Shown: piece by piece, positions 539-63,512 of the stretch
How positions within the stretch are numbered: the first letter of the stretch is position 1
How the letters are laid out: each line of letters opens with the position of its first letter
NCBI GenBank assembly: GCA_965279375.1
Contig: OZ257156.1
Location: forward strand, 1,280,001 to 1,344,000
Source of the DNA: Gemmatimonas sp.
GTDB lineage: Bacteria; Gemmatimonadota; Gemmatimonadetes; Gemmatimonadales; Gemmatimonadaceae
Direction of reading: 5' to 3'
DNA: 64,000 nt
Program-made: the position numbers and the translations under genes
Notes under the pieces: generated by a model
The model's input: only the letters and a program-made list of their open reading frames with translations
Told to the model about the DNA's origin: nothing
Databases searched by the model: none

Positions 539-649
539 GCCTAACCTTGCGTTGCGCTTGACAGGGCCTTCAAGGAGGGCGGCCTGTTCGCTGGCGCTCA
601 CTGGCCGCAATTTATGGCAGGGCCCTGCAAGCGAACGCGCTCGTTAGAG
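539..649 (+). repeat. attC family A
   Basis: GCCTAAC...GTTAGAG. Confidence 0.92.
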
Positions 650-681
650 AGCCCGCCGCCCCCATATCCAAACATCGGCTC

Positions 682-1386
682 GTGAATCTCGCGGTCTTCG
701 ATATCGACGGCACGCTGCTCAACAATTTGGCCGGCGAAGACGCGTGCTACGCGCAGGCGTTACGCGAGCAGTTGGTGCTCGCCGACCTCGACACCGACTG
801 GGCCAGGTACGAGCACGTGTCCGACGATGGCATCGCGACCGAGGCCTATGCGCGGGCGTATGGATGCGCCCCGACCGCCGTGCTGCGGACCGCGACCATT
901 GATCGCTTCGTGGCGCTCCTGCGCGCGGCGCATGTGTCGTCCACGCCGCTGGTGGCCCTGCGCGGTGCGCATGAGGTGCTCACAGCGCTCCCGACGCGTG
1001 GGTGGGCGGTCGCGATGGCGACCGGGGCGTGGCGCCGCGCCGCGGAGTACAAGCTCGCGGCGGCGGGCCTGCCGGTCGCCGACGTGCCGCTGGCGACGTC
1101 GGAAGATGGTCCGGCCCGCGTCGCGATCGTTCGCAGTGCCATCGCGCGCGCGCAGGCCCAGTGGGGCGTCCCCGGGTTTGGCCGCGTGATCGCGATCGGC
1201 GATGGGGTCTGGGACGTGCGGGCGGCGCAGGCGCTCCACCTGCCGTTTGTTGGGGTAGGCGTCGGGCTATCGGTCGATCGCTTGCGCGGGGCCGGGGCAT
1301 CGCACATCATCGCGGACTACGCGGATCTTGCGGGCACGCTCCGAGTGTTCGACCAGGTGCAAGTTCCTCGCGTGGCGGCTCTCTAA
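682..1386 (+). CDS. HAD-superfamily hydrolase (copy 1)
   Basis: FDIDGTL motif I, IGDGVWD motif IV; stop in attC. Confidence 0.9.
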   Translation: MNLAVFDIDGTLLNNLAGEDACYAQALREQLVLADLDTDWARYEHVSDDGIATEAYARAYGCAPTAVLRTATIDRFVALLRAAHVSSTPLVALRGAHEVLTALPTRGWAVAMATGAWRRAAEYKLAAAGLPVADVPLATSEDGPARVAIVRSAIARAQAQWGVPGFGRVIAIGDGVWDVRAAQALHLPFVGVGVGLSVDRLRGAGASHIIADYADLAGTLRVFDQVQVPRVAAL

Positions 1387-1490
1387 CCCGGCGTTGCGGC
1401 AGACAGAGCCGTCAAGGACTGCTCCCTGTTCGCTGCGCTCACTGGTCGCATCCTATTGAAGGGCCCTGCTGCCGAACGCAATCGTTAGAT
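1381..1490 (+). repeat. attC family A
   Basis: CTCTAAC...GTTAGAT. Confidence 0.92.
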
Positions 1491-1530
1491 GTCAGTACGC
1501 CCAAAACAGCCCGGCGAGGAGGGATTAAGG

Positions 1531-2535
1531 GTGCGCCGCAGCCCAATCTTTTTGGCACTGCTCCTGACGGCGTGCGCCGCCCCAATGCATCGCACCAACG
1601 TGATCATTCCGAGCGGGACGGTCTCGCTCGCCGGGACCATCCTCCGTCCCGCGACTGCGGGCCGCCATCCGGCGGTGTTGCTGCTCCACGGTTCGGGCCC
1701 GGATGGGCGCTCGAATCCGTATTATGCGCAGGTGGCCGAGGCGTTCGTGCGCGGCGGCTTCGTCGTGTTGCTGTACGACAAGCGGGGCAGCGGGCAGTCG
1801 ACCGGCGATTGGCGGCGCGCGCCGTTCGACGCGCTGGTCGACGATGCCGCCGCGGCGACGCAGGTGCTCCGCCGGACGCCCGACGTCGATTCGACGCGCG
1901 TCGGCGTCTGGGGCGCGAGTGAAGGCGGGGCGATCGCCCCCGCCGTCGCGGCGCGTGTCCCGTCGCTGGCGTTCGTGATCATGCAGTCTGCGCCCGGCAG
2001 CTCGTTTGCCGCGCAGAATCTCTACCAGACGGCGGGCGAAGTCGCGGCGCTCACCCCGGACCCCACGATGCGCGAGGCGGCGATGCAGCTCCAGCGCGCG
2101 AAGCATGCGGTCGCGCGGGACGGAGCGGCCGCCTGGGCCGCCTACGCAACCGCGCGGCAGGCGGCGCTGGGTCGTCCGTATGCCGCGCTGGCCGCCCCCG
2201 CCACCCTGGACGATTGGTGGTGGGCGTGGTATCGCACGAAGCTGGACTACAGTCCGCTCCCGGCGCTGGCGCGGATCCGGTGCCCCGTGCTCGCGGTCTG
2301 GGGCGAGGCCGATCCGCTGATTCCCGTCGCCGCCAGCCACGCGGCGGTGGCGGAGGCCCGTCGGACGAGCGGTGCAGTGGGCGACTCGCTCGTGATCCTC
2401 GCCGGGGCCGATCATACGATGCGCGTGCCGGGCCTGCGCGGGTTCGTGCGCGGCGCGGGGCTCCGCCATCGGCCGGTCCACCTCAGGCTGCTGGTGGCGT
2501 GGGCGCGCGCCCGCGTGGCGGCCCCTGACACCTAA
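1531..2535 (+). CDS. Alpha/beta hydrolase, probable lipoprotein
   Basis: LLHGSG, YDKRGSG, GASEGG nucleophile elbow, GEAD, GADH; LTAC lipobox; start could be 1489. Confidence 0.88.
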   Translation: MRRSPIFLALLLTACAAPMHRTNVIIPSGTVSLAGTILRPATAGRHPAVLLLHGSGPDGRSNPYYAQVAEAFVRGGFVVLLYDKRGSGQSTGDWRRAPFDALVDDAAAATQVLRRTPDVDSTRVGVWGASEGGAIAPAVAARVPSLAFVIMQSAPGSSFAAQNLYQTAGEVAALTPDPTMREAAMQLQRAKHAVARDGAAAWAAYATARQAALGRPYAALAAPATLDDWWWAWYRTKLDYSPLPALARIRCPVLAVWGEADPLIPVAASHAAVAEARRTSGAVGDSLVILAGADHTMRVPGLRGFVRGAGLRHRPVHLRLLVAWARARVAAPDT

Positions 2536-2640
2536 CCGTGCGTTGCTGCTGACAGGGCCTTCAAGGATAGTGGCCTTGCTCGCGATGCTCGCTGGCCACA
2601 TCCTATTGAAGGGCCCTGCAGCAGAACGCGAGCGTTAGGT
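2530..2640 (+). repeat. attC family A
   Basis: ACCTAAC...GTTAGGT. Confidence 0.92.
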
Positions 2641-2674
2641 AGCGCTTCGCCGACTCGAGACGCAGACTTTTCCG

Positions 2675-3451
2675 ATGCTCGTTCACACGCGTCGAATCCT
2701 GGTGATCGTACTCGGTGTCTGTCTTTGGGCGGTCGGTCTGCCGACGCGGGCACTCGCGCAGCAGGCGGCCTTGCTCGGGACCGTCTTGGAGGACTCGACC
2801 GAGCGGCCGATCGTGAATGCCGAGATCGCCATCCCCGCGCTGCAGCGTCTGGTGCGCAGCGACTCGGTGGGCAACTTCAGCCTCAGCAGCATTCCGCCCG
2901 GCGTCTACCGCGTGACGGTGCGCGCCGTCGGCCGAGCTCCGCTGCAGGAGACGATCGCGTTTGGGACGGCCGGGCGGATTGAACGCGACTACCTCCTCGC
3001 CCGCGCCACGACGACGCTCGCGCCGGTCGACGTGACCGCCGATGCGTCGGTCGACGATGTACGCTTCGCCGACTTCCACGCGCGGCGGCGCCTCGGCACG
3101 GGGCGCTTCCTCACGCAAGACCTCTTGGCGCAGGCGGACGGCCGGAAGATGGCCGATGTGCTGGCGAGTCGCATTCCCGGATTGCGGAGCGTGTCCCTGG
3201 GCGGCACCCAAGGCGTCATGGTCAGTACGCGGGGCGTCATCAGCTTCCGCAATCAGCGGTGCTATGTGAAGGTCATGGTCGACCGCATGCTCCGATACAA
3301 TGGCAGTCCCGACCCGCTCTTTGACATCAACACCCTCGATCCGGCGACGATCGCGGGGGTGGAGTACTACACCACCGCGCAGGTGCCGGCCGAGTTCAAC
3401 GGCACCGGCACGCCGTGCGGCACGCTCGTCATCTGGACGCGCCTGCGCTAG
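2675..3451 (+). CDS. Secreted carboxypeptidase-regulatory-like domain + TonB plug-like protein (copy 1)
   Basis: Signal peptide, GTV..D...PI..A..G.F.L..G.Y.V pattern, C-terminal GVEYY...CGTLVIWTR. Confidence 0.8.
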   Translation: MLVHTRRILVIVLGVCLWAVGLPTRALAQQAALLGTVLEDSTERPIVNAEIAIPALQRLVRSDSVGNFSLSSIPPGVYRVTVRAVGRAPLQETIAFGTAGRIERDYLLARATTTLAPVDVTADASVDDVRFADFHARRRLGTGRFLTQDLLAQADGRKMADVLASRIPGLRSVSLGGTQGVMVSTRGVISFRNQRCYVKVMVDRMLRYNGSPDPLFDINTLDPATIAGVEYYTTAQVPAEFNGTGTPCGTLVIWTRLR

Positions 3452-3501
3452 TGTCGCGTCCTGTCGGCGCGGCCGCGGCATCACGCGACGCGACGCGCGC
3501 T

Positions 3502-3620
3502 ACCTAACCTCGCGTTGGTGCAGTCGGCCGCGCAACGGTGCGCCGTGTAACTGCGGCGCTGGCGCGCCTCCGTTCACGGCTGCCTATTTGAGCGGCCGCA
3601 GCACAACGCAATCGTTAGAT
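3502..3620 (+). repeat. attC family B
   Basis: ACCTAAC...gccgtgtaac...gttcacggc...GTTAGAT. Confidence 0.92.
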
Positions 3621-4330
3621 AGTCCCACCGCACGACACCGCACACGCAGGCTCCGCTCGGGGTGTCTGTGTTCGCCCGATGCGTCGACGGCGCGCGGTGC
3701 GCGTCGATCGCCCCGCGCCGGCAAGACCGCGCCGCAGCGGTTGGCCATCGTGCGTGGCCCCGTGGGTTGATGGTGGCGCGGGGTTGCGTGCGTGCGCGCT
3801 GACCGCGTCGTCGCGTGGTCGCCGATGTCGGGATCGTGGTGGCACGTCGCGTCGGCGTCGGTCAACGCGAGGGAACGTGCATGTCGCTGCGGCGCGTCCT
3901 CGCGGGCACCACCCCGGCGGAGGTGGCCGATGTACACGTCGGGTGCGCAGGGCTTCCGGCGTGCACGTCGTCGCGTCGGGGCTCGAGTGCGTTTCATGCA
4001 TCGCGTGCGTGCGCGCGCATTGCGTAATCGCGCGAGTGCGCGAGTGCGAGTGCGCGTGGGCGTGATGGCGCGTGGGCGTGATGGCGCGTGGGCGTGATGG
4101 CGCGTGGGCCGGGGACCAGCGGGTTCGGCGAACGGAGCGCCGTCGCCTGCGCGCAACGCCGTGCGCCACGCCAGCGCCGCCAGGCGAGCCCCGCCGGCGC
4201 CGCGTGGGTCCGGGCCGCCTCGTGTCCATGCCGCGCGGCCGTTGTGCGCGTCGCTCGCGCTGGCCCACGGGCGAGGCGCGGGCGACGGCGGACGGCGCGT
4301 CCGCTTACAAACGCCCTGGGACTATCTAAC
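3614..4330. other. Cassette without a convincing ORF
   Basis: Bounded by GTTAGATAGTCCCA / TGGGACTATCTAAC; only low-complexity Arg/Ala-rich ORFs. Confidence 0.6.
4052..4109. repeat. Tandem repeat GCGCGTGGGCGTGATG x3.6
   Basis: Read directly; preceded by GCGAGT-like iterations. Confidence 0.9.
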
Positions 4331-4444
4331 CTTGCGTTGGTGCTGACGGCCGCTCAGCGGTGCGCCGTGTAACGTCGCGGGCTGGCGCCCGCTCGTTCAC
4401 GGCTTCCTATTCTGAGCGGCCGCAGCACAACGCTATCGTTAGGT
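4324..4444 (+). repeat. attC family B
   Basis: ATCTAAC...GTTAGGT. Confidence 0.92.
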
Positions 4445-4476
4445 GGCCCTCCAACCCATTGCTCGGAAGCCTTGAG

Positions 4477-5031
4477 ATGGAAAGCTGGCCTGAGCCACGC
4501 CGCATCTTTCTGCACACATACAACTCACTAGTTCATCTGGCCGAGACAGTTGAGCATGGTCTTGTTGGCGTGCCCGAGAACGGCGCTGGGTCTGCGAGTA
4601 AGGCCAATCGGCTCCAGATTGATGACTGGGTACTGCTCCGCGTGACAGACCCGCTCTATCGCCCCGACCACCTAGTAATCGCGTCCCCTCTCCGAGTAAT
4701 CGGAGCCCCCTTCCGGCAATCGCGGGAACCGCGAGATGCCCCGCGTTGGCCGGACCTCCTGTGGAAAGAGGAGAGGGAAGCAGGTGTCTCTCGCTACGGC
4801 TTTCGGATTCCGGTAACGCATGTTGGCACGCCGTTTCGGCAGCTGCAAATCGCCTTTGAAGATCTCGGGAATAGCGGTATCAAGGGACGGAATCGGAAGC
4901 TTCTAGAAGTCCCGAATCAGTGGGGGATCAAGTTCGTATCCAATGTGCTGGATGCGCGCTTCGAGATCGTACGCGTTCTCGATCTGTTGAGTCGCTTCTC
5001 GAAGGACGCAGCCGGTACCGAGAACGGATGA
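4477..5031 (+). CDS. Hypothetical protein, possible EVE/PUA-like domain
   Basis: GLVGV...LQIDDWVLL...PF...LLW...YGFRI pattern; lower GC. Confidence 0.65.
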   Translation: MESWPEPRRIFLHTYNSLVHLAETVEHGLVGVPENGAGSASKANRLQIDDWVLLRVTDPLYRPDHLVIASPLRVIGAPFRQSREPRDAPRWPDLLWKEEREAGVSRYGFRIPVTHVGTPFRQLQIAFEDLGNSGIKGRNRKLLEVPNQWGIKFVSNVLDARFEIVRVLDLLSRFSKDAAGTENG

Positions 5032-5216
5032 GTGCCCTACGTGTTGTCTGGTCGACCTCGGAGATGAATCAGCTATCGTGATAGGCTCGCCGGCGAGACC
5101 TAGTTCTGCACGCAGGTATTGCTGATCGGGCCCGTGTTCGTAACATCCCTGACGGCGCTGCATTTCCCGTTCGCGCGGGAACAGCTTCATCTGCGATTCC
5201 GTAGCGGGGGAGGGCC

Positions 5217-5326
5217 ACCTAACCTTGCGTTGCGGCAGACAGGGCCTTCACGGATTGCTCCCTGTTCGCTGCGCTCACTGGTCGCATCCTATTGAAGGGC
5301 CCTGCTGCCGAACGCGCTCGTTAGAG
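5217..5326 (+). repeat. attC family A
   Basis: ACCTAAC...GTTAGAG. Confidence 0.92.
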
Positions 5327-5358
5327 AGCCCGCCGCCCCCATATCCAAACATCGGCTC

Positions 5359-12735: not shown

Positions 12736-12868
12736 CCTTGCGTTGCTGCAGCAAACGCTGCCGGCATCGGCGTGGCGACCGCGGGGCGTTCGCTGTAACC
12801 TCACAGGGCGGTGCGAACGCCCCGCTTGCGTCCGTGTGGGCGTTTGCTGCAGAACGCGAGCGTTAGAG
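12730..12868 (+). repeat. attC, atypical long singleton (139 bp)
   Basis: GCCTAAC...GTTAGAG; inner stem gcggggcgttcgc/gcgaacgccccgc. Confidence 0.88.
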
Positions 12869-13094
12869 AGCGAACCGCGAATCCGTGATTGTTTGAGGGG
12901 CGAGTGCGGCATCGCTGCGTCGGCAAGCGACGTATCCGCGGCCTTCGTGCGTGTCTGGGAGCACCGCGCCAGCCGACCGCCCCAACGGTCACTGGCGCGC
13001 CGGCCCGGGGGGCCGCCGACTTCCCGCGTGTCGACCCGATTCGCCCGAACGAGCCCTGCTGTCGGTCCCCAATCCAGCGCGCTAGGATTCATCC

Positions 13095-13554: not shown

Positions 13555-13580
13555 CGCCACTCCGGCGTCGTTTGTTCGCT

Positions 13581-13690
13581 CTCTAACCTTGCGTTGCGGC
13601 TGACAGGGCCTTCACGGAGTGCTCCCTGTTCGCTGCGCTCACTGGTCGCCTCCTGTTGAAGGGCCCTGCAGCCGAACGCGAACGTTAGGC
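13581..13690 (+). repeat. attC family A
   Basis: CTCTAAC...GTTAGGC. Confidence 0.92.
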
Positions 13691-22146: not shown

Positions 22147-22242
22147 GCATAACGTGCGTTGCAGCAGACAGCGCGGCTATTGATCGAGCGCGCTCCGCGC
22201 GCTTTTTATTGAGTGCCCCGCAGCTAAACATGGGCGTTAGGT
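22147..22242 (+). repeat. attC, divergent short singleton (96 bp)
   Basis: GCATAAC...gagcgcgctccgcgcgct...GTTAGGT. Confidence 0.75.
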
Positions 22243-25261: not shown

Positions 25262-25576
25262 GTGACCTTTGATTGGGATCCCGCGAAGAGCGACCAGAAC
25301 CTCGCCGAGCGTGGCTTCGACTTTGCGTTCGCTGCACTGATCTTCGCGCAGCCGTACGTGGAGTTCGATGATGCCCGTCGTGACTATGGCGAGCGGCGCC
25401 TCGTCGCGCTCGGGCGGGCCGATGGGATTCCACTCACGGTCGTCTTCACCGATCGCCTGTCCCCAACCGGGACCGTCGTCCGCCGCGTGATCAGTGCGCG
25501 GCTCAGCAACCGCAAGGAGCGTCGCCGTTATGCCGAAAGCCTCGAAGCCATCGCCCCGGAAGACGAGCGCCCGTAA
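25262..25576 (+). CDS. brnT: BrnT-family toxin
   Basis: FDWDPAKS..N...RG.DF...DYGE.R...RVISAR..NRKERR. Confidence 0.93.
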   Translation: MTFDWDPAKSDQNLAERGFDFAFAALIFAQPYVEFDDARRDYGERRLVALGRADGIPLTVVFTDRLSPTGTVVRRVISARLSNRKERRRYAESLEAIAPEDERP

Positions 25577-25889
25577 GCGCTCGGCTGTGCCCATCGTGCC
25601 GACGCAGGGGCGCGCGGATCTTGCGCGGCTGCGTCGCACGACGGATGCCGAGATTGCGCGGACCGCGCCGGACGAGTTGCGCGATCTGCCGGACGATTTC
25701 TGGCAGGGCGCGCGGGTCGTCACGCCCGTCGCGAAGGAGGCGATCTCCATTCGCTTGGATCACGATGTGATTGCGTGGTTCCGGGCGAGTGGACCGCGGT
25801 ATCAGTCGCGCATCAACGCGGTGCTGCGCAGCTACGTCGAACAGGTGGCCGCGCCGGTTCCCACCGCGAAGCGGAAGCGGGCGGTCTAA
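25530..25889 (+). CDS. brnA: BrnA-family antitoxin
   Basis: K..ISIRLD.DV..WFR..G..YQSRINAVLR. Confidence 0.93.
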   Translation: MPKASKPSPRKTSARKRSAVPIVPTQGRADLARLRRTTDAEIARTAPDELRDLPDDFWQGARVVTPVAKEAISIRLDHDVIAWFRASGPRYQSRINAVLRSYVEQVAAPVPTAKRKRAV

Positions 25890-36588: not shown

Positions 36589-36707
36589 ACCTAACCTCAC
36601 GTTGGTGCAGACAGCCGCTCAGCGGTGCGCCGTGTAACTGCGGCGCTGGCGCGCCTCCGTTCACGGCTTCCTATTGGAGCGGCCGCTGCACAACGTAAGC
36701 GTTAGGA
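36589..36707 (+). repeat. attC family B
   Basis: ACCTAAC...GTTAGGA. Confidence 0.92.
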
Positions 36708-36726
36708 AGCGCACCTACATTCACTC

Positions 36727-37419: not shown

Positions 37420-38922
37420 ATGAGTGTTGAGAATATGGAGAAGGCCAAGGAGAATCGACTTCTCTGGCCGCCGATATCCGACGCTGTGGACACTTACTTG
37501 CGGCGCCGCGCCTCTAATGCCGATGGATACGAACTGACTTGGCGCCTGGTTCACGTATGGGAGGCGATAGCCGCCACGCTTTCCGCGGCGGCAGTGACCC
37601 GTTTGCGAGAAGAGCCGAAGTTTGAACCTCTCTATCGCCGCGCCCGTGAGTACTACCACGGAAGATTCTGGGATCCGATAGCACAAGGCTTCAACCGTTC
37701 GCAAAGTGGGCTCGACGGCAGCGCGACGCGCAGAATCGACGTCCTGTGGGACATCAGCAATGGCGATGTTTCCTCCTCACGCTTCCTCACGAGTCTGCAG
37801 AGCTTTCTTCTCGCCAAAGAAATCGACCTCTCTCCGCTGGTGAAGGAGTGGGAACGAATCTGTGAGGTTCCTGATGAGACGAAGGCTTCCGGAAAATTCG
37901 CCGTTCGCGAGGCTTTGAGGCACGTCAACACGTTCCGAAATCGCTTTGCGCACGTTCCATTTCCGTACGACGTCCTGAGGGACGTTTCGGACGCCTATGC
38001 TCGCGTGACGGAGCAGCTGTTCAGCTTCGCCCCCGCACCTTTTAGCTCGTTTACGCAGGACGAGTCATTGGAAAGTCCGCTCTGCGGATCAATCCTGTGG
38101 AAGGATCGCGCGATGCGTGGTGGGGAGAACTTTCGCACTGTAAGTGAATGGCCGGCAGGTTATGGCTTCTCCTATCCGCCGATCGCAAAGAAGTCGTCGC
38201 CAGCTGAGAGTTGGAGCGCATCTCCATTCGTACATGTTGACTCGATGCTTCGACCGTACGTAATGACACGTCTTACGTCGATAACGAGCGGAACCTGGGA
38301 GTTTACGAGATTCAGAGCGGAGGCAAGTTCGGTAATTGCTATTCAGAATGCCGAAGCAGTCGCCGACCTTCCGGCACCAACACAAGCGGAGTACTCGACC
38401 CCACAGGACGCGGCGGATAGGGCTGAAGCAAAGGAGATCGAAGAGACGGTCCAAGCGCAGGCGCCGTCGTCTGCCACTCTGGCTCAGGATGAGCCATCTT
38501 CGTTTGACGAAGCGCTTCGGTTCGTGAGAAACGAGGACTTCGAGCCCGCAATTCGATACTTCCAGCGGTACGTCGAAGCTCGCCCCGCATACCATATCGG
38601 CTGGCTTCGCCTAGGGCACGCACAGCGAGAGCTCGCGATGCGCCGCCGTTTCGCGGACCCCGAAGGTGCAGCAACGCTGTTTGACAGCGCTATTGAATCG
38701 CTGTCTCAGGCGACGGGTCATGTTGAGAGGAATCGCAAGGCGCAGGCGCTCTACGAACGTTCTAAGGCGTACTATCACAGGGGGAACTTTCTCTCACAGC
38801 ACGAGGATCTGGGGAGTGCCTCAAAGGATGCAAGTGAAGCGTGCGATCTCTCTCCTGATACTTCGTACGAGAGTTGGCGAGAGTACGTAACGAACCATGC
38901 AGTCGCGCTGGACGCTTCCTAA
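37420..38922 (+). CDS. HEPN-like (RNRFAH) + C-terminal TPR protein
   Basis: FRNRFAH motif; TPR-like AIRYF...W.RLG.A...A..LF..AI; GGAG RBS; stop in attC. Confidence 0.8.
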   Translation: MSVENMEKAKENRLLWPPISDAVDTYLRRRASNADGYELTWRLVHVWEAIAATLSAAAVTRLREEPKFEPLYRRAREYYHGRFWDPIAQGFNRSQSGLDGSATRRIDVLWDISNGDVSSSRFLTSLQSFLLAKEIDLSPLVKEWERICEVPDETKASGKFAVREALRHVNTFRNRFAHVPFPYDVLRDVSDAYARVTEQLFSFAPAPFSSFTQDESLESPLCGSILWKDRAMRGGENFRTVSEWPAGYGFSYPPIAKKSSPAESWSASPFVHVDSMLRPYVMTRLTSITSGTWEFTRFRAEASSVIAIQNAEAVADLPAPTQAEYSTPQDAADRAEAKEIEETVQAQAPSSATLAQDEPSSFDEALRFVRNEDFEPAIRYFQRYVEARPAYHIGWLRLGHAQRELAMRRRFADPEGAATLFDSAIESLSQATGHVERNRKAQALYERSKAYYHRGNFLSQHEDLGSASKDASEACDLSPDTSYESWREYVTNHAVALDAS

Positions 38923-39027
38923 CAGTGCGTTGCTGCTGGCAGGGCCTTCAAGGATTGCGGCCTTGTTCGCTGCGCTCACTGGCCGCAACCTATTGAAGGG
39001 CCCTGCAGCAGAACGCGAGCGTTAGGC
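38917..39027 (+). repeat. attC family A
   Basis: TCCTAAC...GTTAGGC. Confidence 0.92.
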
Positions 39028-39075: not shown

Positions 39076-41169
39076 ATGAAGATTGACTCGCTCCGCATCG
39101 CAAACTTTCGAGGCATCGGAGACGTGACCCTCGAGTCGCTTGGCACAATGGTGATCATCGCCGGGCCAAACGGGTCCGGAAAGTCTTGCATCTTCGATGC
39201 AGTTCGCCTGCTGAAGTCGATCTACGGCGGCTATCAGGCCAATGAGTGGCAGCAATGGATGGGAGAGTTCCATGTCAACCTCGCGAGCCGCGCGACGGAC
39301 TATTTCCCGATCTTCAACGACCGGACGAAGGAGCTCCGCATCTCTTGTGGCTTCAGATTGGCGGAAGACGAACGCCGCTATATCTCAGCGAACGCGGACG
39401 AGCTCTTACGCGAACACATCTGGCGTACGCTCATGCCGGAGGCCTACGCATGGGGTGGTCTACGCCTTCCGATGTTCGCGACGCAGTTCCGGGAACGCGA
39501 GCCCGAAGTCGGAGAGCGCGTCTCCGTCGAGCGGCCGCTCCTCGCTGAGGAGCTGAGTCGTCCGACGATTCAAGGTGAAATCGTCATTCGACCAGGCGAT
39601 GTCCCCGAGGTGCGGAAATCGGTTGCGCTCTCGGTCGCATTCAGCACGTTCAGACCGCAGCAGCTTGGCGTGATTGACTACCACGGAGCACAGCGACACT
39701 ACGGTCGCGAGAACGTGCAGGGAATCAATCTTAGTCTCGATGCGAGCCAGCAGAATCAGAGCCAACACGCCTTGTACAACTACGCCAACAAGTACAACAA
39801 TGTGAAAAGCGAGATGGCGGCTTCGTACGTGAAGGAGATTCTGGCCGAACAGGCAGGCCTTCCCAAGGCATCTCAATCGACTCTAACGAATACCCTGAAG
39901 GAACTCTTCGAGACATTCTTCCCGGAGAAGACATTCTCTGGTCCCGTGCCTACGACGGACGGCACTCTGACCTTTCCGGTCCGTACAGCAAGCGGCGGGC
40001 AGCACGACCTAGATGATCTTAGTTCCGGTGAGAAGGAGATTCTCTACGGCTACCTCCGCATCCGGAATTCGGCTCCGCGGTATTCAATCATCTTGGTCGA
40101 TGAGCCCGAGCTACACCTTAATCCAAAACTCATTCGAGGCCTTCCGCAGTTCTATCGTCGGAATCTCGCGGAGTCACTAGAGAACCAGATTTGGCTCGTT
40201 ACTCACTCGGACGCCTTGTTGCGAGAAGTTGTGGGCCGAGACTCCTACAATGTTTTTCATATGCTTCCGCAAACACAGGTCAGGGACGGCGGCAGTCAGC
40301 TTCGCGCTTTATCCGTCACCGCCGATCTGGACTTGGCGTTGGCCGATTTGGTTGGAGATCTCGCGACGTTTCGACCGGGCGGAAAGGTGGTAATTGTCGA
40401 GGGGGGCGGAGATTCGGATTTTGATCTTCGGGCCGTATCGCGTCTGGTGCCGGAGATGGCTGAGCAAGTGAATTTGCTCTCGGGTACGAACAAAACTCGC
40501 GTTCGGAGTCTACTGGAGCTTCTCACGCGCGCCGAACATGCTGGAATTGTCCCGTTCAAGTGTTTCTCAATTACAGACCGCGACTCAGACTCGGCCGTAG
40601 TTGCGCCGAATGCTGCGAATGCGCTTTCGTGGGATGTCTACCATATCGAGAACTACTTCCTTGAGCCCAAGTACATCTCACGCGTCCTGTCTGCGCTCCA
40701 CCTCGGAGGGAATTGGACTGACGAGCAGATCTGGGATGAGCTTCGCGAGTGCGCAACGTTGACCATTCCTTCCTTAGTGCGACACGAACTCTCCTTTTTT
40801 GCGAATGGGCTGCTTATCAATGCTCTCGAAGTCAAGTCGGACCCTAAACAGGAGCTGCAGGCATCGGCGATTAGGTCGTCGGTCGAGAACGCGCTGAGGC
40901 GCATCACAGCAATTGAAAGCACTCAACTGTCCGACTCAGAATTGACGCGCAGGGAGCAGGAGATTCGCGCCCGATTGACAGCGAGTATCGCAGACGGTTC
41001 TTGGACGAGCTCATTCCGCGGCCGAGATGTGCTCAAACGCTTTGTCGCGCGCTCAAAGACGACGGTTTCATATGAGGTTTTCCGCAACTTGATTCTCTCT
41101 CATATGGCCGACGATGGATACTGTCCTCCCGGACTACGGGCTGTAGTGCAGACGGTTCTTGATGGGTGA
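39076..41169 (+). CDS. ABC/AAA ATPase + TOPRIM (OLD-like) protein
   Basis: NFRGI, GPNGSGKS, LSSGEK, LVDEPELHL, VTHS; IVEG..D, DRD, IENY. Confidence 0.9.
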   Translation: MKIDSLRIANFRGIGDVTLESLGTMVIIAGPNGSGKSCIFDAVRLLKSIYGGYQANEWQQWMGEFHVNLASRATDYFPIFNDRTKELRISCGFRLAEDERRYISANADELLREHIWRTLMPEAYAWGGLRLPMFATQFREREPEVGERVSVERPLLAEELSRPTIQGEIVIRPGDVPEVRKSVALSVAFSTFRPQQLGVIDYHGAQRHYGRENVQGINLSLDASQQNQSQHALYNYANKYNNVKSEMAASYVKEILAEQAGLPKASQSTLTNTLKELFETFFPEKTFSGPVPTTDGTLTFPVRTASGGQHDLDDLSSGEKEILYGYLRIRNSAPRYSIILVDEPELHLNPKLIRGLPQFYRRNLAESLENQIWLVTHSDALLREVVGRDSYNVFHMLPQTQVRDGGSQLRALSVTADLDLALADLVGDLATFRPGGKVVIVEGGGDSDFDLRAVSRLVPEMAEQVNLLSGTNKTRVRSLLELLTRAEHAGIVPFKCFSITDRDSDSAVVAPNAANALSWDVYHIENYFLEPKYISRVLSALHLGGNWTDEQIWDELRECATLTIPSLVRHELSFFANGLLINALEVKSDPKQELQASAIRSSVENALRRITAIESTQLSDSELTRREQEIRARLTASIADGSWTSSFRGRDVLKRFVARSKTTVSYEVFRNLILSHMADDGYCPPGLRAVVQTVLDG

Positions 41170-42137: not shown

Positions 42138-42241
42138 CCTGGCGTTGCGGCAGACAGGGCCTTCAAGGATTGCTCCCTGTTCGCTGCGCTCACTGGTCGC
42201 ATCCTATTGAAGGGCCCTGCTACCGAACGCTATCGTTAGAC
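42132..42241 (+). repeat. attC family A
   Basis: CTCTAAC...GTTAGAC. Confidence 0.92.
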
Positions 42242-42390
42242 GGCGAATGACGAACGGTGTGCCAACGTCAGATCTGGTGTGCGATTCCGCACCGCGCGGT
42301 ACCGCGCGCCGGCTATCCTTCACCCGATCGCGCGCGGTGGGCCTCCGGCCTATCGGCTGTCCGCGCGGGTTCAATGGACGGAGTCTTCCG

Positions 42391-43365: not shown

Positions 43366-43412
43366 CGCGGCGCATCGGCGCCTACCTCAGGATGGTCGGT
43401 GCGGGATTCGCC

Positions 43413-43525
43413 GTCTAACAGTGCGTTGCTGTTGACAACGGCTTCAAGGATTGCGGCCCATTGCTCGCTGCGCTCGCTGGCCGCAACCTATTGAAAGCCG
43501 TTGCAACAGAACGCGAACGTTAGAC
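43413..43525 (+). repeat. attC family A
   Basis: GTCTAAC...GTTAGAC. Confidence 0.92.
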
Positions 43526-49451: not shown

Positions 49452-49571
49452 ACCTAACCTTGCGTTGGTGCAGACAGCCGCTCAGCGGTGCGCCGTGTAA
49501 CTGCGGCGCTGGCGCGCCTGCGTTCACGGCTTCCTATTCTGAGCGGCCGCAGCACAACGCAATCGTTAGGC
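49452..49571 (+). repeat. attC family B
   Basis: ACCTAAC...GTTAGGC. Confidence 0.92.
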
Positions 49572-49608
49572 AGTCCCAACGTAACTACACTCCACACAGG
49601 ATACGCAC

Positions 49609-50254: not shown

Positions 50255-50860
50255 ATGAACGCTCAACTCACTCTCGAGTACGCAAAGCTTCTGCTTGGAT
50301 GGCCAATCGTGACGCTCGTCATCTCGACCATTTTCGTACGCACATTCCGCCCTCAGATCGCCTCGCTGCTCGAGCGCCCATTGAAGCTGGAGTGGCCAGG
50401 GGGAGGCGCTTCGTTCGGATCGCAGGATCGTGCGTCAAGAGCGGAGCTACAGGCGACTACCTCTGTACCAACTGTCCCATCGGCAGGCGTGGAGGTGAAG
50501 CTCCCTGATAGCATCTCAGCCACGTCGACAGGAGGTCAAGATGTGGTCCACCTGATTCAGTCGGAAAGAGCGAACGCCGCACTTTGGGAGTACCGCTACC
50601 TAAACCAGTTTCTGGTTAGATCAACTCAACTTGTTCTAGACTGGATCGCAGGGCTTCCGAATGGTATCTCGACAGCATTCTTCGACTCTCAACTTCAGGC
50701 GCACATTTCGCTCGCCAATGAGAGATTCGCGATTCTGAATGCACTGCAACGCCATCATCTGATCTCTGTTCGCGACGGGCTAATCCAAGTGACTGACAAA
50801 GGGAGAGAATACTTAAGCTGGCGTGGTCCGATGCCACCCATTCCGCCGGGGACTGCCTAA
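50255..50860 (+). CDS. Hypothetical protein, N-terminal TM and C-terminal wHTH-like segment
   Basis: WP-TM; LI......VTDKGREYL; stop in attC. Confidence 0.75.
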   Translation: MNAQLTLEYAKLLLGWPIVTLVISTIFVRTFRPQIASLLERPLKLEWPGGGASFGSQDRASRAELQATTSVPTVPSAGVEVKLPDSISATSTGGQDVVHLIQSERANAALWEYRYLNQFLVRSTQLVLDWIAGLPNGISTAFFDSQLQAHISLANERFAILNALQRHHLISVRDGLIQVTDKGREYLSWRGPMPPIPPGTA

Positions 50861-50973
50861 CCTTGCGTTGGTGCAGACAGCCGCTCAGCGGTGCGCCGTG
50901 TAACTGCGGCGCTGCCGCGCCTCCGTTCACGGCTTCCTATTTGAGCGGCTGCAGCACAACGCCATCGTTAGAC
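50855..50973 (+). repeat. attC family B
   Basis: GCCTAAC...GTTAGAC. Confidence 0.92.
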
Positions 50974-51127
50974 CGTGGCAACAGTCGGTGGCGTGTCCGC
51001 CAGCGCTCGCACGACATGGTCTCTGGAGTAATGGTTCGCCGGTCCCCACCCGCGACCGGATGGATCGGTCGGCAGCGGCAGCCGAGCGGGGCATGCCCGG
51101 CGCGCGGTTCGCAGGTAGATTTGGGCC

Positions 51128-51445
51128 ATGACGCCCTCGATCCTCACCCGCGCCGACGTGGAAGCCCGCGTGGCCGCCGCCCGCCCGGAGATTCTCCGGT
51201 TGGGCGTGCAGCGTCTGGCGCTTTTCGGCTCCGTGCAGCGGAACGAAGCGCGCGGCGATAGCGACGTGGACGTGTTGGTCGAGTTCGCCGCCGGCCAGAA
51301 GACCTTCGACCATCTCTTGGCGTTGGGGGAGCTGTTGGAAGGAGCGCTGGGCCACCGGGTGGAACTCGTCACAGCCGAATCGCTCTCCCCGTACCTGCGT
51401 CCCTACATCCTCACCGAAGCCCAGGATGTCCTTCGCGCCGCGTGA
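51128..51445 (+). CDS. MNT nucleotidyltransferase antitoxin
   Basis: LFGS..R......SDVD.LVEF. Confidence 0.93.
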
Positions 51446-51764
51446 GTATCTGCGGCATATCGCGGACGAAGCGGCCTATCTCGAGCAGGCGACGAGTGGG
51501 GTGAGTCGGGACGCGTTCCTCGAGGATCCGACGCTGCAGCGCGCGTGCGTGCGCAGCTTCGAGATCATCGGCGAGGCGACCAAGAAGGTGCCCGCGGAGC
51601 TGCGGGCGGCGCACCCCGACGTGGCGTGGCGCGCGATGGCGGGCATGCGAGATCGCTTGATTCACGACTACTTCGGCGTGGATCTCGACCTCGTGTGGGA
51701 CGTGATTCAAGAGAAGATCCCGACGCTCCGCCGCCAGATCGAGCGGATTCTCGCCACGGTCTAA
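51426..51764 (+). CDS. HEPN (DUF86) toxin
   Basis: EIIGEA.K...W....[14 protein letters not shown]...VW. Confidence 0.93.
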
Positions 51765-51868
51765 CATCGCATTGCTGCAGACAGGGCCTGCACGGAGTGC
51801 GCCCTGTTCGCTGCGCTCACTGGTCGCATCCTATTGCAGGGCCCTGCTGCAGAATGCAATCGTTAGAC
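51759..51868 (+). repeat. attC family A
   Basis: GTCTAAC...GTTAGAC. Confidence 0.92.
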
Positions 51869-58119: not shown

Positions 58120-58229
58120 GCCTAACAGTGCGTTGCTCTTGACAGGGCCGCTATTGATTGCTCCCTGTTCGCTGCGCTCACTGGTCGCATTTTGTTGAAC
58201 GGCCCTGCAAGAGAACGCGAGCGTTAGGC
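58120..58229 (+). repeat. attC family A
   Basis: GCCTAAC...GTTAGGC. Confidence 0.92.
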
Positions 58230-58251
58230 GGCGGGCGGCAAATCACTGATC

Positions 58252-58707: not shown

Positions 58708-58847
58708 CGCTCCGCGGACTTCCGCGGCATCGTGCCCGCGTGGGGCGTGTCGCCGATCGTGTCGCGGTCGGACGGCGGGTGACCGGTTCGTCTGGGAGCT
58801 TCGTCCACCGGCTGCGCGCGTGACCGGGAGTCGGCGCAGGCCCGACC

Positions 58848-58958
58848 GCCTAACATCGCATTGCTGCAGTCAGGGCCTTCAAGGACTGCCGCCTTGTTCG
58901 CTGCGCTCACCGGCGGCGTCTTATTGCAGGGCCCTGCTGCAGAATGCAATCGTTAGGC
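58848..58958 (+). repeat. attC family A
   Basis: GCCTAAC...GTTAGGC. Confidence 0.92.
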
Positions 58959-59015
58959 TGCTAGGTGGTTCAACTTTAGCAAGGTTCCGAAGTGAACTCC
59001 CATTCGTGAGGCGTT

Positions 59016-60677
59016 ATGAAGATTCTCAGTGCGCTCTTGCTGACTTCACTCATTGTCTTATCGTCGCCGTCCGGTGCGCAGCAACCACCTAGTCGTACGT
59101 GTCAGTTCAACGCTGGACCACGCGCGGGACAGAGACAGTCGTACCCCCAAGCGCAGCCGATCCCGGTCGGCTCGCCGTGCCAGGATGGTCAGGGCAGCAC
59201 GGGACTCGCCATCGCGGAGCAAGGTCCAAACCCGATCCCTGGCGGCGGTTCAGGCCAGCTGACCCGGACATGTCAGTTCAATGCTGGACCACGCACGGGA
59301 CAGCGACAGTCGTACCCACAAGCGCAGCCGATCCCGGTCGGCTCGCCGTGCCAAGATGGTCAGGGCAGCACGGGACTCACCGTTGCGGAGCAAGGTCCGC
59401 CCCCCGTCCCCGGCGGCGGTTCAGGCCAGCTGACCCGGACATGTCAGTTCAATGCTGGACCACGCGCGGGACAGCGACAGTCGTACCCACAAGCGCAGCC
59501 GATCCCGGTCGGCTCGCCGTGCCAAGATGGTCAGGGCAGCACGGGACTCACCGTTGCGGAGCAAGGTCCGCCCCCCATCCCCGGCGGCGGTTCGGGCCAG
59601 CTGACCCGGACGTGTCAGTTCAACGCTGGACCACGCGCGGGGCAAACGCAGTCGTACCCAGAAGCGCAGCCGATCCCGGTCGGATCGCCGTGTCAGGATG
59701 GTCAGGGCAGCACGGGACTCGCCATCGCGGAGCAAGGTCCAACCCCGATCCCCGGCGGCGGTTCGGGCCAGCTGACCCGGACGTGTCAGTTCAACGCTGG
59801 ACCACGCGCGGGGCAAACGCAGTCGTACCCAGAAGCGCAGCCGATCCCGGTCGGATCGCCGTGTCAGGATGGTCAGGGCAGCACGGGACTCGCCATCGCG
59901 GAGCAAGGTCCAACCCCGATCCCCGGCGGTGGTTCAGGCCAGCTGACCCGGACGTGTCAGTTCAGTACTGGACCGCGCGCGGGGCAGACGCAGACGTACC
60001 CCCAAGCACAGCCGATCCCAGTCGGGTCTCCATGCCAAGATGGTCAAGGCAGCACGGGGACAGCCGTGCCAGACAAGCAACTGACGTCCGCAACACAAAC
60101 CGCGACCTGTCCGGCGGGATTTAGCTGTGCATTCATTCCCGCCACGCAGCTACCCCAGATCAAACCACAACTTACCATGGTCTGGTGCTGGGTCGCATCC
60201 GCCCAAGCGATTTTTCAATACTATGGTCACGATGTAGACCAAGCGACGATCGTATCGCAGGTGCTCGGCCAACCGATTGTCACCGCAGCAAACGCGCAGA
60301 TGATGGTGTCAATGCTTAATCGGCAGTACGTCGATAAGCAGGGCGTTCCGTTTGCTGTTCGCACTCCTTTGCTATGGGACTCCTTCTCCTGGCTCTCGGC
60401 GAACCCGGCCTTTATGGCTAACATCGGCGCGCAACCGCTAAACAATCGCGGAGTTCGTGACGCAATAGCTGCAGGGCGCCCGCTTCTTATTGGCACGAAG
60501 AATCACGCAATGGTGCTCGTCGGCATGATCTACTCAGATGTGAACGGCAACATCATCCCTCGAGCAGGCTACGTACTCGATCCAGCGCCAACCGCCTTCG
60601 GGGGCGCAGTCGGCCTAAGGCAACTTAGCGCAGGAGAAATGACCGCGTACTTTGCCGCAGACGTCACCGTTCAGTAG
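59016..60677 (+). CDS. Secreted protein: 6 Cys-containing repeats + papain-like cysteine peptidase domain
   Basis: Signal peptide; 57-aa repeats; Q....WCWVAS, HAMVLVG, VLDP. Confidence 0.85.
   Translation: MKILSALLLTSLIVLSSPSGAQQPPSRTCQFNAGPRAGQRQSYPQAQPIPVGSPCQDGQGSTGLAIAEQGPNPIPGGGSGQLTRTCQFNAGPRTGQRQSYPQAQPIPVGSPCQDGQGSTGLTVAEQGPPPVPGGGSGQLTRTCQFNAGPRAGQRQSYPQAQPIPVGSPCQDGQGSTGLTVAEQGPPPIPGGGSGQLTRTCQFNAGPRAGQTQSYPEAQPIPVGSPCQDGQGSTGLAIAEQGPTPIPGGGSGQLTRTCQFNAGPRAGQTQSYPEAQPIPVGSPCQDGQGSTGLAIAEQGPTPIPGGGSGQLTRTCQFSTGPRAGQTQTYPQAQPIPVGSPCQDGQGSTGTAVPDKQLTSATQTATCPAGFSCAFIPATQLPQIKPQLTMVWCWVASAQAIFQYYGHDVDQATIVSQVLGQPIVTAANAQMMVSMLNRQYVDKQGVPFAVRTPLLWDSFSWLSANPAFMANIGAQPLNNRGVRDAIAAGRPLLIGTKNHAMVLVGMIYSDVNGNIIPRAGYVLDPAPTAFGGAVGLRQLSAGEMTAYFAADVTVQ
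59097..60060 (+). repeat. Intragenic 171-bp tandem repeat, 5 full + 1 partial
   Basis: TGTCAGTTCA recurs at 171-bp period (59100, 59271, ...). Confidence 0.93.
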
Positions 60678-60757
60678 TAGCGGTCTACAGCAAAGACAGC
60701 CGATCGAACTGCGAAGCTTTGGTTGGTTGCCATGAGCACTCAGACTCGCGCATAGCA

Positions 60758-60876
60758 GCCTAACCTTGCGTTGGTGCAGACAGCCGCTCAGCGGTGCGCC
60801 GTGTAACTGCGGCGCTGGCGCGCCTCCGTTCACGGCTTCCTATTTGAGCGGCTGCAGCACAACGCCATCGTTAGAC
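60758..60876 (+). repeat. attC family B
   Basis: GCCTAAC...GTTAGAC. Confidence 0.92.
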
Positions 60877-61001
60877 AGCCGCATCGTATGTTGATGTCAA
60901 GGCAGCGTCCGGTCGGATCTTTGGTGTTTGTCCGACGCGAGCCGCGCGTCCGGTGTGCAGCGGCCCAAAGCGTATCCGTCGAGATTCGTGAGGCCTCGCG
61001 C

Positions 61002-61029
61002 TTGCCGGGATGTACGGTGTATGTACATT
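61002..61029 (+). promoter_or_regulatory. Putative brnTA promoter/operator
   Basis: TTGCCG-16-TACATT; ATGTAC-N7-GTACAT palindrome. Confidence 0.65.
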
Positions 61030-61035
61030 CCGAAT

Positions 61036-61326
61036 ATGACCGCGCCGGACTTTACGTGGGACCCGAAGAAGGATGCCGCGAACCAGCGCAAGCATGGGGT
61101 CGCCTTTGAGGAGGCGCGCACGGTCTTCGAGGATGATGAGGCGTTGCTCATCCCGGACCCGGCGCATTCGACCGGGGAAGAGCGCTTCGTCCTGCTTGGC
61201 CTGAGTGCGGCGCTGCGCGTGCTCGTGGTGGTGCACTGCGAGCCCGTCGCGGACCAGATCCGGATCATCTCGGCTCGGAAAGCCGATCCCAGCGAACGTC
61301 GGACCTATGCCCGGAGACGCGCCTGA
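61036..61326 (+). CDS. brnT: BrnT-family toxin
   Basis: FTWDPKK...N.RKHGV.FEEA..VF.D...D..HS..EERF...IRIISARKA. Confidence 0.93.
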   Translation: MTAPDFTWDPKKDAANQRKHGVAFEEARTVFEDDEALLIPDPAHSTGEERFVLLGLSAALRVLVVVHCEPVADQIRIISARKADPSERRTYARRRA

Positions 61327-61556
61327 TGAAAGCCCGCTATGACTTCACCGCCGCCACGAAGAACCCGTACGCGAAACGGCTCAAGCAGTCGGTCACGATC
61401 CGCCTCGATGTGTCCACGGTCGCTTACTTCAAGGCGCTGGCCGAGGAGACCGAGCTCCCGTATCAGAGTCTCATCAATCTGTATCTGCGGGATTGCGCGG
61501 CGTCGGGCCGTCGGCCGGCACTGACGTGGCGTCCCACGCGGGCCCGCGCGAGCTGA
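61326..61556 (+). CDS. brnA: BrnA-family antitoxin
   Basis: MK..YDF....KNPY...LK..VTIRLD....YFK.....PYQSLINLYL; TGATG coupling. Confidence 0.9.
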   Translation: MKARYDFTAATKNPYAKRLKQSVTIRLDVSTVAYFKALAEETELPYQSLINLYLRDCAASGRRPALTWRPTRARAS

Positions 61557-61608
61557 CGCGCGCGTGAGTACGGTCGTCCGCGCGCGAGACAACAACGGTA
61601 TTGCGGCT

Positions 61609-61719
61609 GTCTAACATAGCGTTGCTGTTGACAACTGCTTCAAGGATTGTGGCCGTGCTCGCGTCGCTCGCTGGCCACAACCTATTGAAGGCCGTTGCAA
61701 CAGAACGCAATCGTTAGCG
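61609..61719 (+). repeat. attC family A
   Basis: GTCTAAC...GTTAGCG. Confidence 0.92.
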
Positions 61720-61868
61720 AGCCTCGCACGTTTCTGGTCGGATGGATGATCGCTTGATCGCACATCCGCGTTCTCTTTGCAGGGCCGCGTTGGCTAGCCC
61801 GCGTCGGCTGGCGTACCATTGCTCAGTGCCGCGGACATCGCGGCTCGGTCCTTCTCTTCGGGGTGCTG

Positions 61869-62603
61869 ATGTTCGACTCCATTGGTGGCTCCACAAATCG
61901 CCGTGACTTCCTCCGACAGGGCGGCGTCGCCGGTGCCCTGGCGATGTTTCCGGCGGGACAGGCGAGTGCCGCGGAATCGCTAACGTCCGATCCCGGCATG
62001 ACGTCGCGGGCGCTGCGGCCCGACGCGCCCGACGAGCACGGCCCCGCGGCTGGGACGCTCTCCGCCGCGGACCGCACGTGGGACCTGTCGTGGGTCAAGT
62101 CCGTGGGCCGGGCGAAGGACAAGGCCCTCATCGACGCGCCCGGCGTCGACGGCTGGGCGCTCGACATTGCCCAGCGCTACCTCGACGGGTGCGATGCGGT
62201 GTACGGCCGTGAGAAGCACGACGCGCGGGTCGTGCTCAACATTCGCACGCGGGCGATTCCGATTGCGATGTCGGATGCGCTCTGGGCGCGGTTCGCGCTG
62301 GGCGCCGAGTACGAGGTCAAGGATTCGCGCACAAACGAGAACGCCACGCGTAACCCGTTCCTCGCGCGGACGGATGCCGGGTCGTTGCCGTACCTGCTGG
62401 GGCGCGGTGCCATCGTGCTCGTGTGCGACTTCGCAATGGGCCATCTGGCGACCCGACTCGCCACCAAACGCGGCGTCACCGCCGACGCGGTGCACGAGGA
62501 GCTGCTGGCCGGACTCATCCCCGGGGCGATCCCCATGCCGTCTGGCATGTTCGGGCTGGCGAAGGCGCAGAACGCGGGGTGCGCCTTCATCAGCACGACG
62601 TAG
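61869..62603 (+). CDS. Tat-exported protein, DsrE-like C-terminus
   Basis: NRRDFL twin-Arg; RG...LVC..A...LIPG....PSG......AQ..G. Confidence 0.8.
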   Translation: MFDSIGGSTNRRDFLRQGGVAGALAMFPAGQASAAESLTSDPGMTSRALRPDAPDEHGPAAGTLSAADRTWDLSWVKSVGRAKDKALIDAPGVDGWALDIAQRYLDGCDAVYGREKHDARVVLNIRTRAIPIAMSDALWARFALGAEYEVKDSRTNENATRNPFLARTDAGSLPYLLGRGAIVLVCDFAMGHLATRLATKRGVTADAVHEELLAGLIPGAIPMPSGMFGLAKAQNAGCAFISTT

Positions 62604-62689
62604 GTCTCTAGACGCTGTGCATTCGGACGCGCTCGACTACGAGGCGACGCGGGACGCGCCCGTGCGTTGGGATCGTGCGCAGAACGGCT

Positions 62690-62800
62690 CGCTAACCGTG
62701 CGTTGCGCTTGACAGGGCCGCTAGGGATGGCGGCCTGTTCGCTGGCGCTCACTGGCCGCAATTTGTGGAAGGGCACTGCAAGCGAACGCAATCGTTAGAT
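62690..62800 (+). repeat. attC family A
   Basis: CGCTAAC...GTTAGAT. Confidence 0.92.
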
Positions 62801-62952
62801 GGCGGCTCAGAGCGTGGTGTGATCGCGAGCACGTCGAGCGAGATTGGTGTTGGAGTCGTCGCGAGATTTCGCACGGGTCGTGCTCGACAAATCGCGCTAG
62901 AGTGTTTCGCGAACGCGTTCCCAACATCGTGCGGTCCATTGGGAGGTGTGCA

Positions 62953-63249
62953 ATGTCTGAGATGCCGGGTTCGCCGCATTGGGCGGCGTCGTCGGAAGGT
63001 CGGGTCCTCCGCGTCGTCGGGGCCCTGATCGCGGGGATTGATCTGGTGATCGTGTGGTCAGAGCTGCGCGCGGGACAGGCGGTGCCCTGGACCGCGTGGG
63101 CGCGTCCGCTCTGGATGGTGGCGCTCGTCGTGGGCGCGGATCCACGGTTCGCGCGGCGGTGGCCGACGCGACAGCCCGTCACGTGGATGGGGCTCGCCAT
63201 CTTCGGGATGCTGTACCTCGTGGCACGCGTAGCGACGCGCGGCTCGTAG
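62953..63249 (+). CDS. Small 3-TM membrane protein (copy 5)
   Basis: Close paralog of 7286. Confidence 0.8.
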   Translation: MSEMPGSPHWAASSEGRVLRVVGALIAGIDLVIVWSELRAGQAVPWTAWARPLWMVALVVGADPRFARRWPTRQPVTWMGLAIFGMLYLVARVATRGS

Positions 63250-63393
63250 TCCGTCGGGACGCACCGTCGGCCTTCCGCGAATACTCGCCCGTACCGCGAT
63301 GGGATCCGTGTGACGGTATCCAGTTCGCGTTCCCGCGGCCTCGCGTCGCACAACCGGCCCGTGTGGCCGCGAGACCGCGCGCCGCATGCCGCC

Positions 63394-63512
63394 ATCTAAC
63401 CTCGCGTTGGTGCAGTCGGCCGCTCAGCGGTGCGCCGTGTAACTGCGGCGCTGGCGCGCCTCCGTTCACGGCTTCCTATTTGAGCGGCCGCAGCACAACG
63501 CAATCGTTAGGC
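63394..63512 (+). repeat. attC family B
   Basis: ATCTAAC...GTTAGGC. Confidence 0.92.

Follow-up and report, generated by a model that had tools for sequence, protein, structure and literature searches.

Within a 64,000-nucleotide stretch of a Gemmatimonas sp. chromosome (positions 1,280,001-1,344,000 of contig OZ257156.1; hereafter the window), most gene cassettes of a large integron array begin and end with sequences that are reverse complements of each other well past the 7-bp core of the R box, typically over about 12 bases. We think it fairly probable that each pair of ends represents the outer R arm of attC split in two, and that selection maintains its complementarity over a stretch likely equal to the footprint of the integrase. 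The extended match as such is an already described, general feature of integrons, and the array studied here stands at its long end.

Positions were counted from the G of GTT, and the perfect run was taken as the uninterrupted complementarity between a cassette's start and its end. In the 58 complete cassettes of the window, the perfect run of cognate ends had a median of 12 (range 4-15); it exceeded 7 in 55 of 58 and was at least 10 in 50 of 58, which agrees with the 10-15 bp in most cassettes claimed by an earlier reading of the sequence alone (the sequence-only reading). That reading had proposed a comparison with shuffled pairs, and cognate ends were indeed the better ones past 7 bp: non-cognate start/end pairs had a median of 5, and 4.7% of 3306 such pairs reached at least 10. 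Over positions 8-15, 323 of 464 positions were matched, compared with a mean of 198.5 and a maximum of 236 in 20,000 permutations. The cognate match per position was at least 0.95 through position 10, then fell to 0.86 (position 11), 0.66 (12), 0.47 (13) and 0.41 (14), and reached background at 15. For the whole array we kept 104 cassette spans, having dropped composites and everything past window position 96,000, with nine degenerate attC candidates left unparsed; taking one cassette per DNA family (84 families) again gave a median of 12, with at least 10 in 71 of 84, and 52 of the 98 exact-unique cassettes reached at least 12.

Positions 1-5 and 9-10 are a consensus of most cassettes, as would be expected if the match arose by chance together with a common end consensus in GC-rich sequence. 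This explanation was rejected and retains practically no credence, given that none of the 20,000 permutations reached the observed match, either in the window or in the 84 families, and that position 8 is matched in 0.98 of cognate and 0.33 of non-cognate pairs. When each start was paired with the end of the adjoining cassette, as at the junctions of the array, there was no excess of matching (median 5; at least 10 in 2 of 57), and template switching inside the array, where an end would pair with the start of the next cassette, was accordingly rejected.

The consensus at positions 9-10 is GC, and non-cognate pairs match there at 0.76 and 0.81; the truly cassette-specific signal is therefore confined to positions 6-8 and 11-14. 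The claim that the ends differ between cassettes thus holds for these positions and fails for positions 9-10. Across the 84 families there are 57 distinct first 11-mers, and a few triplets dominate positions 6-8 (ACC in 15, GCG in 12 and GTG in 9 of 84). Read in frame with the TAA, a 3' end with GC at positions 9-10 encodes Ala-X-stop. By mechanical calls of open reading frames (ORFs), the TAA of TAAC is the stop codon of the longest plus-strand ORF in 29 of 104 cassettes across the entire array; the two stops on a TAA that the sequence-only reading had noted (DAS* and GTA*) were correctly placed. Ala-X-stop occurs equally often with an upstream ORF stop (47 of 63) and with a stop on the TAA itself (15 of 21), and the GC at positions 9-10 is therefore probably a DNA-level preference. 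Coding overlap was rejected as the cause of the match: the median run is 11 where the ORF stops on TAAC (n = 21) and 12 elsewhere (n = 63). The individual arms referred to below are listed here; the six pairs quoted by the sequence-only reading (3614/4330, 14 bp; 4438/5223, 15; 12862/13587, 14; 42235/43419, 14; 49565/50861, 13; 60870/61615, 14) proved exact in place and length.

643..653, plus strand: 5' arm of a HAD-hydrolase cassette, 11 bp; position 8 differs on both arms in a homologue from another genome (G083, locus L203)
1377..1387, plus strand: 3' arm of the same cassette; last codons Ala-Leu-stop plus the C of TAAC
3614..3627, plus strand: 5' arm, 14 bp; both arms have A at position 8, where two homologous cassettes upstream of the window have G on both
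4317..4330, plus strand: 3' arm, complement of 3614-3627
4438..4452, plus strand: 5' arm, 15 bp, an exact pair and the longest in the window
5209..5223, plus strand: 3' arm, complement of 4438-4452
12862..12875, plus strand: 5' arm, 14 bp; partner 13574-13587
36701..36711, plus strand: 5' arm, 11 bp; pairs with 38913-38923, where a 500-residue ORF ends (..DAS*)
42235..42248, plus strand: 5' arm, 14 bp; partner 43406-43419
49565..49577, plus strand: 5' arm, 13 bp; partner 50849-50861 (..GTA*)
50967..50979, plus strand: 5' arm of a HepT-like cassette, 13 bp; no counterpart upstream of the non-cassette homologue L228
51753..51765, plus strand: 3' arm of the HepT-like cassette, last codons of the gene; 10 of 13 nucleotides in common with the gene end of L228
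60870..60883, plus strand: 5' arm, 14 bp; partner 61602-61615

The substrate of IntI is the bottom strand of attC in its folded form, recombined at the R box. A circular cassette that inserts at attI is opened at G|TT, so that R' with its extension comes to lie at the cassette start and R'' with its extension at the end. The matched ends of a cassette would then together make up the outer R arm of its attC, one half each, and would pair only in the excised circle. We suggest that their complementarity is kept for 11-14 bases, likely by selection, and that these bases are probably the duplex stretch lying under the integrase monomer that cuts at G|TT. Cassettes with mismatched arms would re-insert or spread less well and then be lost, and the outer limit of the match would reflect the integrase footprint. 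For comparison, the tyrosine recombinases XerC/D and Cre occupy 11-13 bp on the outer side of the cut.

The suggestion that the extension makes for a longer attC stem once the cassette is circular, but not while it sits in the array, is borne out by folding predictions with DNA parameters, in which the bottom-strand hairpin is more stable in the circle form than in the array form for 56 of 58 cassettes, with a median of -7.9 kcal/mol. The extension past position 7 is predicted to contribute -5.3 kcal/mol. The mean predicted probability of the crossover pair is 0.94 in the circle, 0.92 when only the 7-bp core is matched, and 0.81 in the array; since the core alone serves nearly as well, most of the asymmetry between circle and array is due to the core, and so would be most of any resulting bias toward re-integration over excision, as supposed by the sequence-only reading. 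The predictions thus suggest that the extension chiefly adds duplex at positions 8-12 and would not be decisive for the folding of the R box, and this added duplex would be explained more readily by a requirement for protein contact than by one for folding.

To judge from comparisons of homologous cassettes, the match is maintained after a cassette is born. In 13 homologous pairs from the array itself, taken unfiltered and not fully independent (three share one member and two another), positions 8-11 had changed in 2 of 52 cases on the 5' arm and 1 of 52 on the 3' arm, whereas positions 16-30 had changed in 47 of 195 cases on either arm (Fisher p = 6.5e-4 for the 5' arm and 1.0e-4 for the 3' arm). 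At positions 12-15, 1 of 32 positions had changed where the reference was paired and 12 of 72 where it was unpaired. In 59 Vibrio families, change amounted to 1-5% at positions 8-11 and 10-11% at positions 16-30. As the non-coding 5' arm is conserved too, protein constraint is insufficient as an explanation.

The arms also change together. The cassette at 3614 is homologous at both ends to the two upstream cassettes (blastn E 6e-18 for the 3' end) from which it differs at position 8 on both arms, and the HAD cassette, compared with its colinear G083 homologue (63% nucleotide identity), shows at position 8 a synonymous change of an Ala codon with a matched change in the non-coding 5' arm. Such double changes were found in 5 of 59 Vibrio families, two of them with a singly changed form present, and in 1 of 16 families from the array and its relatives. 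Wobble pairs are about as scarce in the extension as in the L box, the other site of the integrase (646 of 665 Watson-Crick; 568 of 582 at positions 5-10). In 369 Vibrio families, mismatches at positions 10-11 were G.T pairs on the bottom strand in 53 cases and on the top strand in 8, where composition predicts about 2:1. The raw Vibrio excess at positions 5-10 (67 against 12) shrank to 9 against 7 at positions 5-9 after de-duplication, and persisted only at 10-11. At the degenerate distal end of the array the median run is 6.5 (n = 10), compared with 11-12 elsewhere, a few of the distal spans being possibly composite. Since the arms are conserved and co-change after birth, the match is maintained and not merely a scar of birth. 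An A/G pair at position 12 in two same-family genomes, G039 and G031 (47 of 96), was also considered as a signal and discarded, being near the 41.7 expected from composition.

The idea that the ends are a footprint of how cassettes are made therefore falls short as the sole account, and templating at birth is neither shown nor excluded. In its explicit form, the nascent top strand would fold back at attC, at birth or whenever a single-stranded circle is copied, and the 5' arm would be written from 10-14 nucleotides at the 3' end of the gene, with selection then only preserving the result. The underlying mechanism would be template switching at quasi-palindromes. We regard this as a plausible though unlikely origin. 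It would account for perfect runs of variable length that end abruptly in background, for 57 different 11-mers in 84 families that are nearly all matched while double changes are rare, and for a 3' arm that is often coding (the 29 of 104 above). It is also compatible with later selection; taken alone, it predicts that change in the donor arm is neutral, whereas conservation of the 3' arm exceeds that of its flank about 10-fold. In Vibrio, moreover, where the first mismatch falls at position 8, position 9 is matched again in 10 of 14 cases, and after a first mismatch at position 10 matching resumes in 48 of 106 (background 0.34), which speaks against a copied tract. No newborn cassette was caught.

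The most direct evidence on copying comes from the HepT-like cassette (50967-51765), for which 21 homologous loci were recovered. The closest, L228 (94% amino-acid identity), lacks an attC and has 10 of 13 nucleotides in common with the 3' arm, but no counterpart of the 5' arm. Five cassette-like copies of the HepT module (L232, L233, L234, L246 and L248) differ in their 5' arms, and in every case the arm agrees with the end of the copy's own gene at 9-12 of 12 positions. These data agree with a 5' arm that follows the gene end, as far as one informative pair can indicate. In a tree of 20 HepT sequences, 11 of 17 inner branches lacked resolution and the direction between cassette and non-cassette forms was not settled, so that the L228 gene may itself descend from a cassette. 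Non-cassette homologues, the means proposed for telling which arm is native, yielded this one informative pair. The C-termini of the non-cassette HAD homologues were too distant to inform on the native arm.

One could also imagine that new genes enter an existing cassette frame, so that the matched ends are old and reused. Cassettes whose interiors are only 60-73% identical at the nucleotide level do retain identical, matched 13-14 bp ends, and the dominance of a few triplets at positions 6-8 and the shared GC at 9-10 point in the same direction. On the other hand, the 3' arm can be continuous with a native coding end, the same gene module carries different arms in different genomes, and 57 distinct 11-mers occur among the 84 families, and we consider such reuse improbable.

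The reading in terms of selection over the integrase footprint draws support from an outer limit that varies by lineage and can be sharp, as in G039. Several points weigh against it. The length of the IntI footprint is taken by analogy from other tyrosine recombinases. Excision works on array junctions that pair over about 5 bases, which means that duplex along the whole arm is no strict requirement. In the array itself, matching drops to background directly past a first mismatch at 11-13, which a copied tract of variable length predicts as well, and no bottom-strand G.T bias was seen at positions 5-10, where the cases are too few (3 against 3). The filter applied to the Vibrio families biases conservation upward, and in those Vibrio families that have many copies, intermediate forms with mismatched arms may have arisen by recombination from one copy to another. 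Finally, the footprint model leaves unaccounted for how a newborn cassette first acquires its match. A more far-reaching speculation, which we hold only tentatively and judge doubtful, is that fold-back copying, with the gene's 3' end as template for the 5' arm, writes the ends and leaves a direct signature of cassette creation, with an outer limit that differs by lineage (in Vibrio 9-11, in G039 a sharp 11, here 12-14) and records either the tract length of the copying machinery or the footprint of each integrase. If copying were true it would bear on the genesis of cassettes, which passages in PMC5371416 and PMC4792948 call unexplained.

Pairing of R' and R'' past 7 nucleotides is in print: a passage of Bouvier 2009 (PMC2727003), citing Rowe-Magnus 2003 and Sundstrom 1991, describes a total of 9-11 consecutive complementary nucleotides in most cassettes, and itself gives no counts, cause or test. 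The likeness to our array is that cognate ends are complementary past 7 nucleotides in most cassettes (here 55 of 58); the differences are a median of 12, 1 bp past the printed range, and the shared GC at positions 9-10. A passage in Loot 2017 states that the variable part of R' need not complement R'' within arrays. In the mainly open-access literature that was searched, no paper came to light that measures the extension or describes compensatory change there.

The sequence-only reading had accepted as a refutation that the same extension length be normal in arrays already described. Extended pairing was the norm in the other arrays tested, so that its novelty is not supported and a peculiarity of this array was rejected. 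In the genus Vibrio (636 cassettes, from the 13 of 16 genomes with cassettes; G140 and G128 yielded none) the median was 9, with at least 9 in 504 and at least 10 in 304, and the non-cognate median was 4. A filter of at least 5 of 8 matches at positions 4-11 kept 583 of 636, and after de-duplication the resulting 369 families had a median of 10. The arrays are alike in their large size, homogeneous attC sites and a cognate match above the non-cognate one; Vibrio differs in a shorter match, a frequent mismatch at position 10 and the absence of a GC consensus. The same-family arrays of G039 (n = 72) and G031 (n = 31) both had a median of 11, that of G039 with a sharp stop after 11 (49 of 72 reach 10 and 1 reaches 12). 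Class 1 plasmid cassettes (26 rows, less 4 repeats and 7 composite or disrupted spans, leaving 15 distinct intact ones) had a median of 8 and heterogeneous attC sites, unlike the array; four of them reached 11-12, namely aadA2, qacL and aac(6')-Il at 12 bp and blaVIM at 11. The match in our array is only 1-3 bp longer than in the other arrays tested. Same-genus relatives, with fragmented assemblies, offered few usable cassettes, and 49 spans from mixed taxa (median 8) were set aside as containing composites from missed attC sites.

Taken as an observation, the match belongs to the normal anatomy of integrons. What it adds, on a small scale, is evidence for a functional R arm that would measure 11-14 bp, where 7 bp is usually drawn, and that is conserved, co-changes on both sides and has a lineage-dependent length. 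This could refine models of attC, the calling of cassette boundaries and the design of synthetic attC sites.

The integron itself is defined by the following features.

543..63508, plus strand: window part of the cassette array; 59 attC sites, 58 complete cassettes (between 643 and 63400)
543..645, plus strand: representative attC, spanning AAC of R'' to G|TT of R'
G000:C1 1,246,027-1,246,965, plus strand: intI, about 33 kb upstream of the window; attI presumably there too

The window (1,280,001-1,344,000 of G000:C1, the single contig of the genome, to which the larger coordinates below refer) lies inside a chromosomal integron array that extends from 1,247,265 to about 1,393,500. A profile made from the window attC sites had 129 matches in the genome, of which 121 form one plus-strand array of about 145 kb (1,248,094 to about 1,393,500), that is, same-strand cassettes each with a terminal attC. 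The count of 58 cassettes between 59 attC sites, from 643 to 63400, was correct, and so was the reading of their ends as the R'/R'' ends of integron cassettes. The sites have the attC hairpin layout (R''-L''...L'-R') with an unpaired spacer and an extrahelical base. A structure-based finder, which scores the inside of attC only and ignores the flanks, recovered 56 of 59 window sites with 0 false and 0 on the reverse strand; all 56 had spacers of 5 and 6 nt, and in each an extrahelical G is present in L''. Compared with the R' consensus GTTRRRY, GTTAG is present in 58 of 58, a purine at position 6 in 53 of 58 and a pyrimidine at position 7 in 48 of 58. At 22150-22238 there is a short divergent attC (85 bp) of an apparently foreign type, and the cassette ending there has a perfect run of only 4 bases. 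Past the window, at 1,356,000-1,393,500, attC sites are degenerate and several have lost the GTT of R', so that the cassettes concerned are probably no longer mobile.

The intI gene is intact and free of stops (TIGR02249, 383.9 bits; cut-off 265), and its product aligns over its full length with IntI4 of PDB 2a3v (E 2.8e-76), covering an insertion region that we take to be the IntI-specific insertion; it thus combines the catalytic residues of tyrosine recombinases with the insertion expected of an integron integrase. The named integrase that scored best in a plasmid collection is from Gemmatirosa (58% identical), which would fit a host among the Gemmatimonadota. A candidate attI junction, and with it the start of the first cassette, is the G|TT at 1,247,265, about 300 bp past intI; the end of the cassette that begins there matches it over 12 bp, and the array scan found no attC-like site upstream of it. 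In the 1,246,027-1,247,265 region (L001:1486-2739), intI is co-oriented with the cassettes, which begin past its 3' end, whereas in Vibrio it is divergent from them. The layout is the same in the relatives G050, G039 and G031, so that co-orientation is possibly a family-wide trait here. A passage on Treponema chromosomal integrons (PMC3607928), which belong to another lineage, likewise has cassette genes oriented as intI and terms this an atypical structure; a text search of that paper for 'complementar' gave 0 matches. By its sequence organization, the array appears to be of the sedentary chromosomal kind.

Indirect signs of possible IntI-catalysed excision and insertion are repeated copies of cassettes at several positions of the array and one cassette-like unit outside it. 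The HAD-hydrolase cassette occurs in five window copies (643, 5320, 16000, 41394 and 56566) at 92-98% nucleotide identity. Two further multi-copy families (3614-4330; 7127, 14479, 29607, 55798 and 62794) have conserved blocks and matched 13-14 bp ends with no convincing conserved ORF (40-63% amino-acid identity between copies), and are possibly gene-less or RNA-encoding cassettes. The unit outside the array, at about 923,842-925,050 on the minus strand, has ends that match at 12 of 12 scored positions and no attC at its start, and looks like an insertion at a secondary site. Other solo attC matches lie at 109,651, 316,905, 318,317, 673,931, 904,951, 911,824 and 3,705,121. Among the cassette genes, BrnA-antitoxin, AAA_21 ATPase and HepT-like domains (25494-25889, 39076-41169 and 51426-51764) suggest modules that are likely toxin-antitoxin or anti-phage defence systems. 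At 59094-60077, 171-bp tandem repeats lie within a 553-residue ORF that has no Pfam match.

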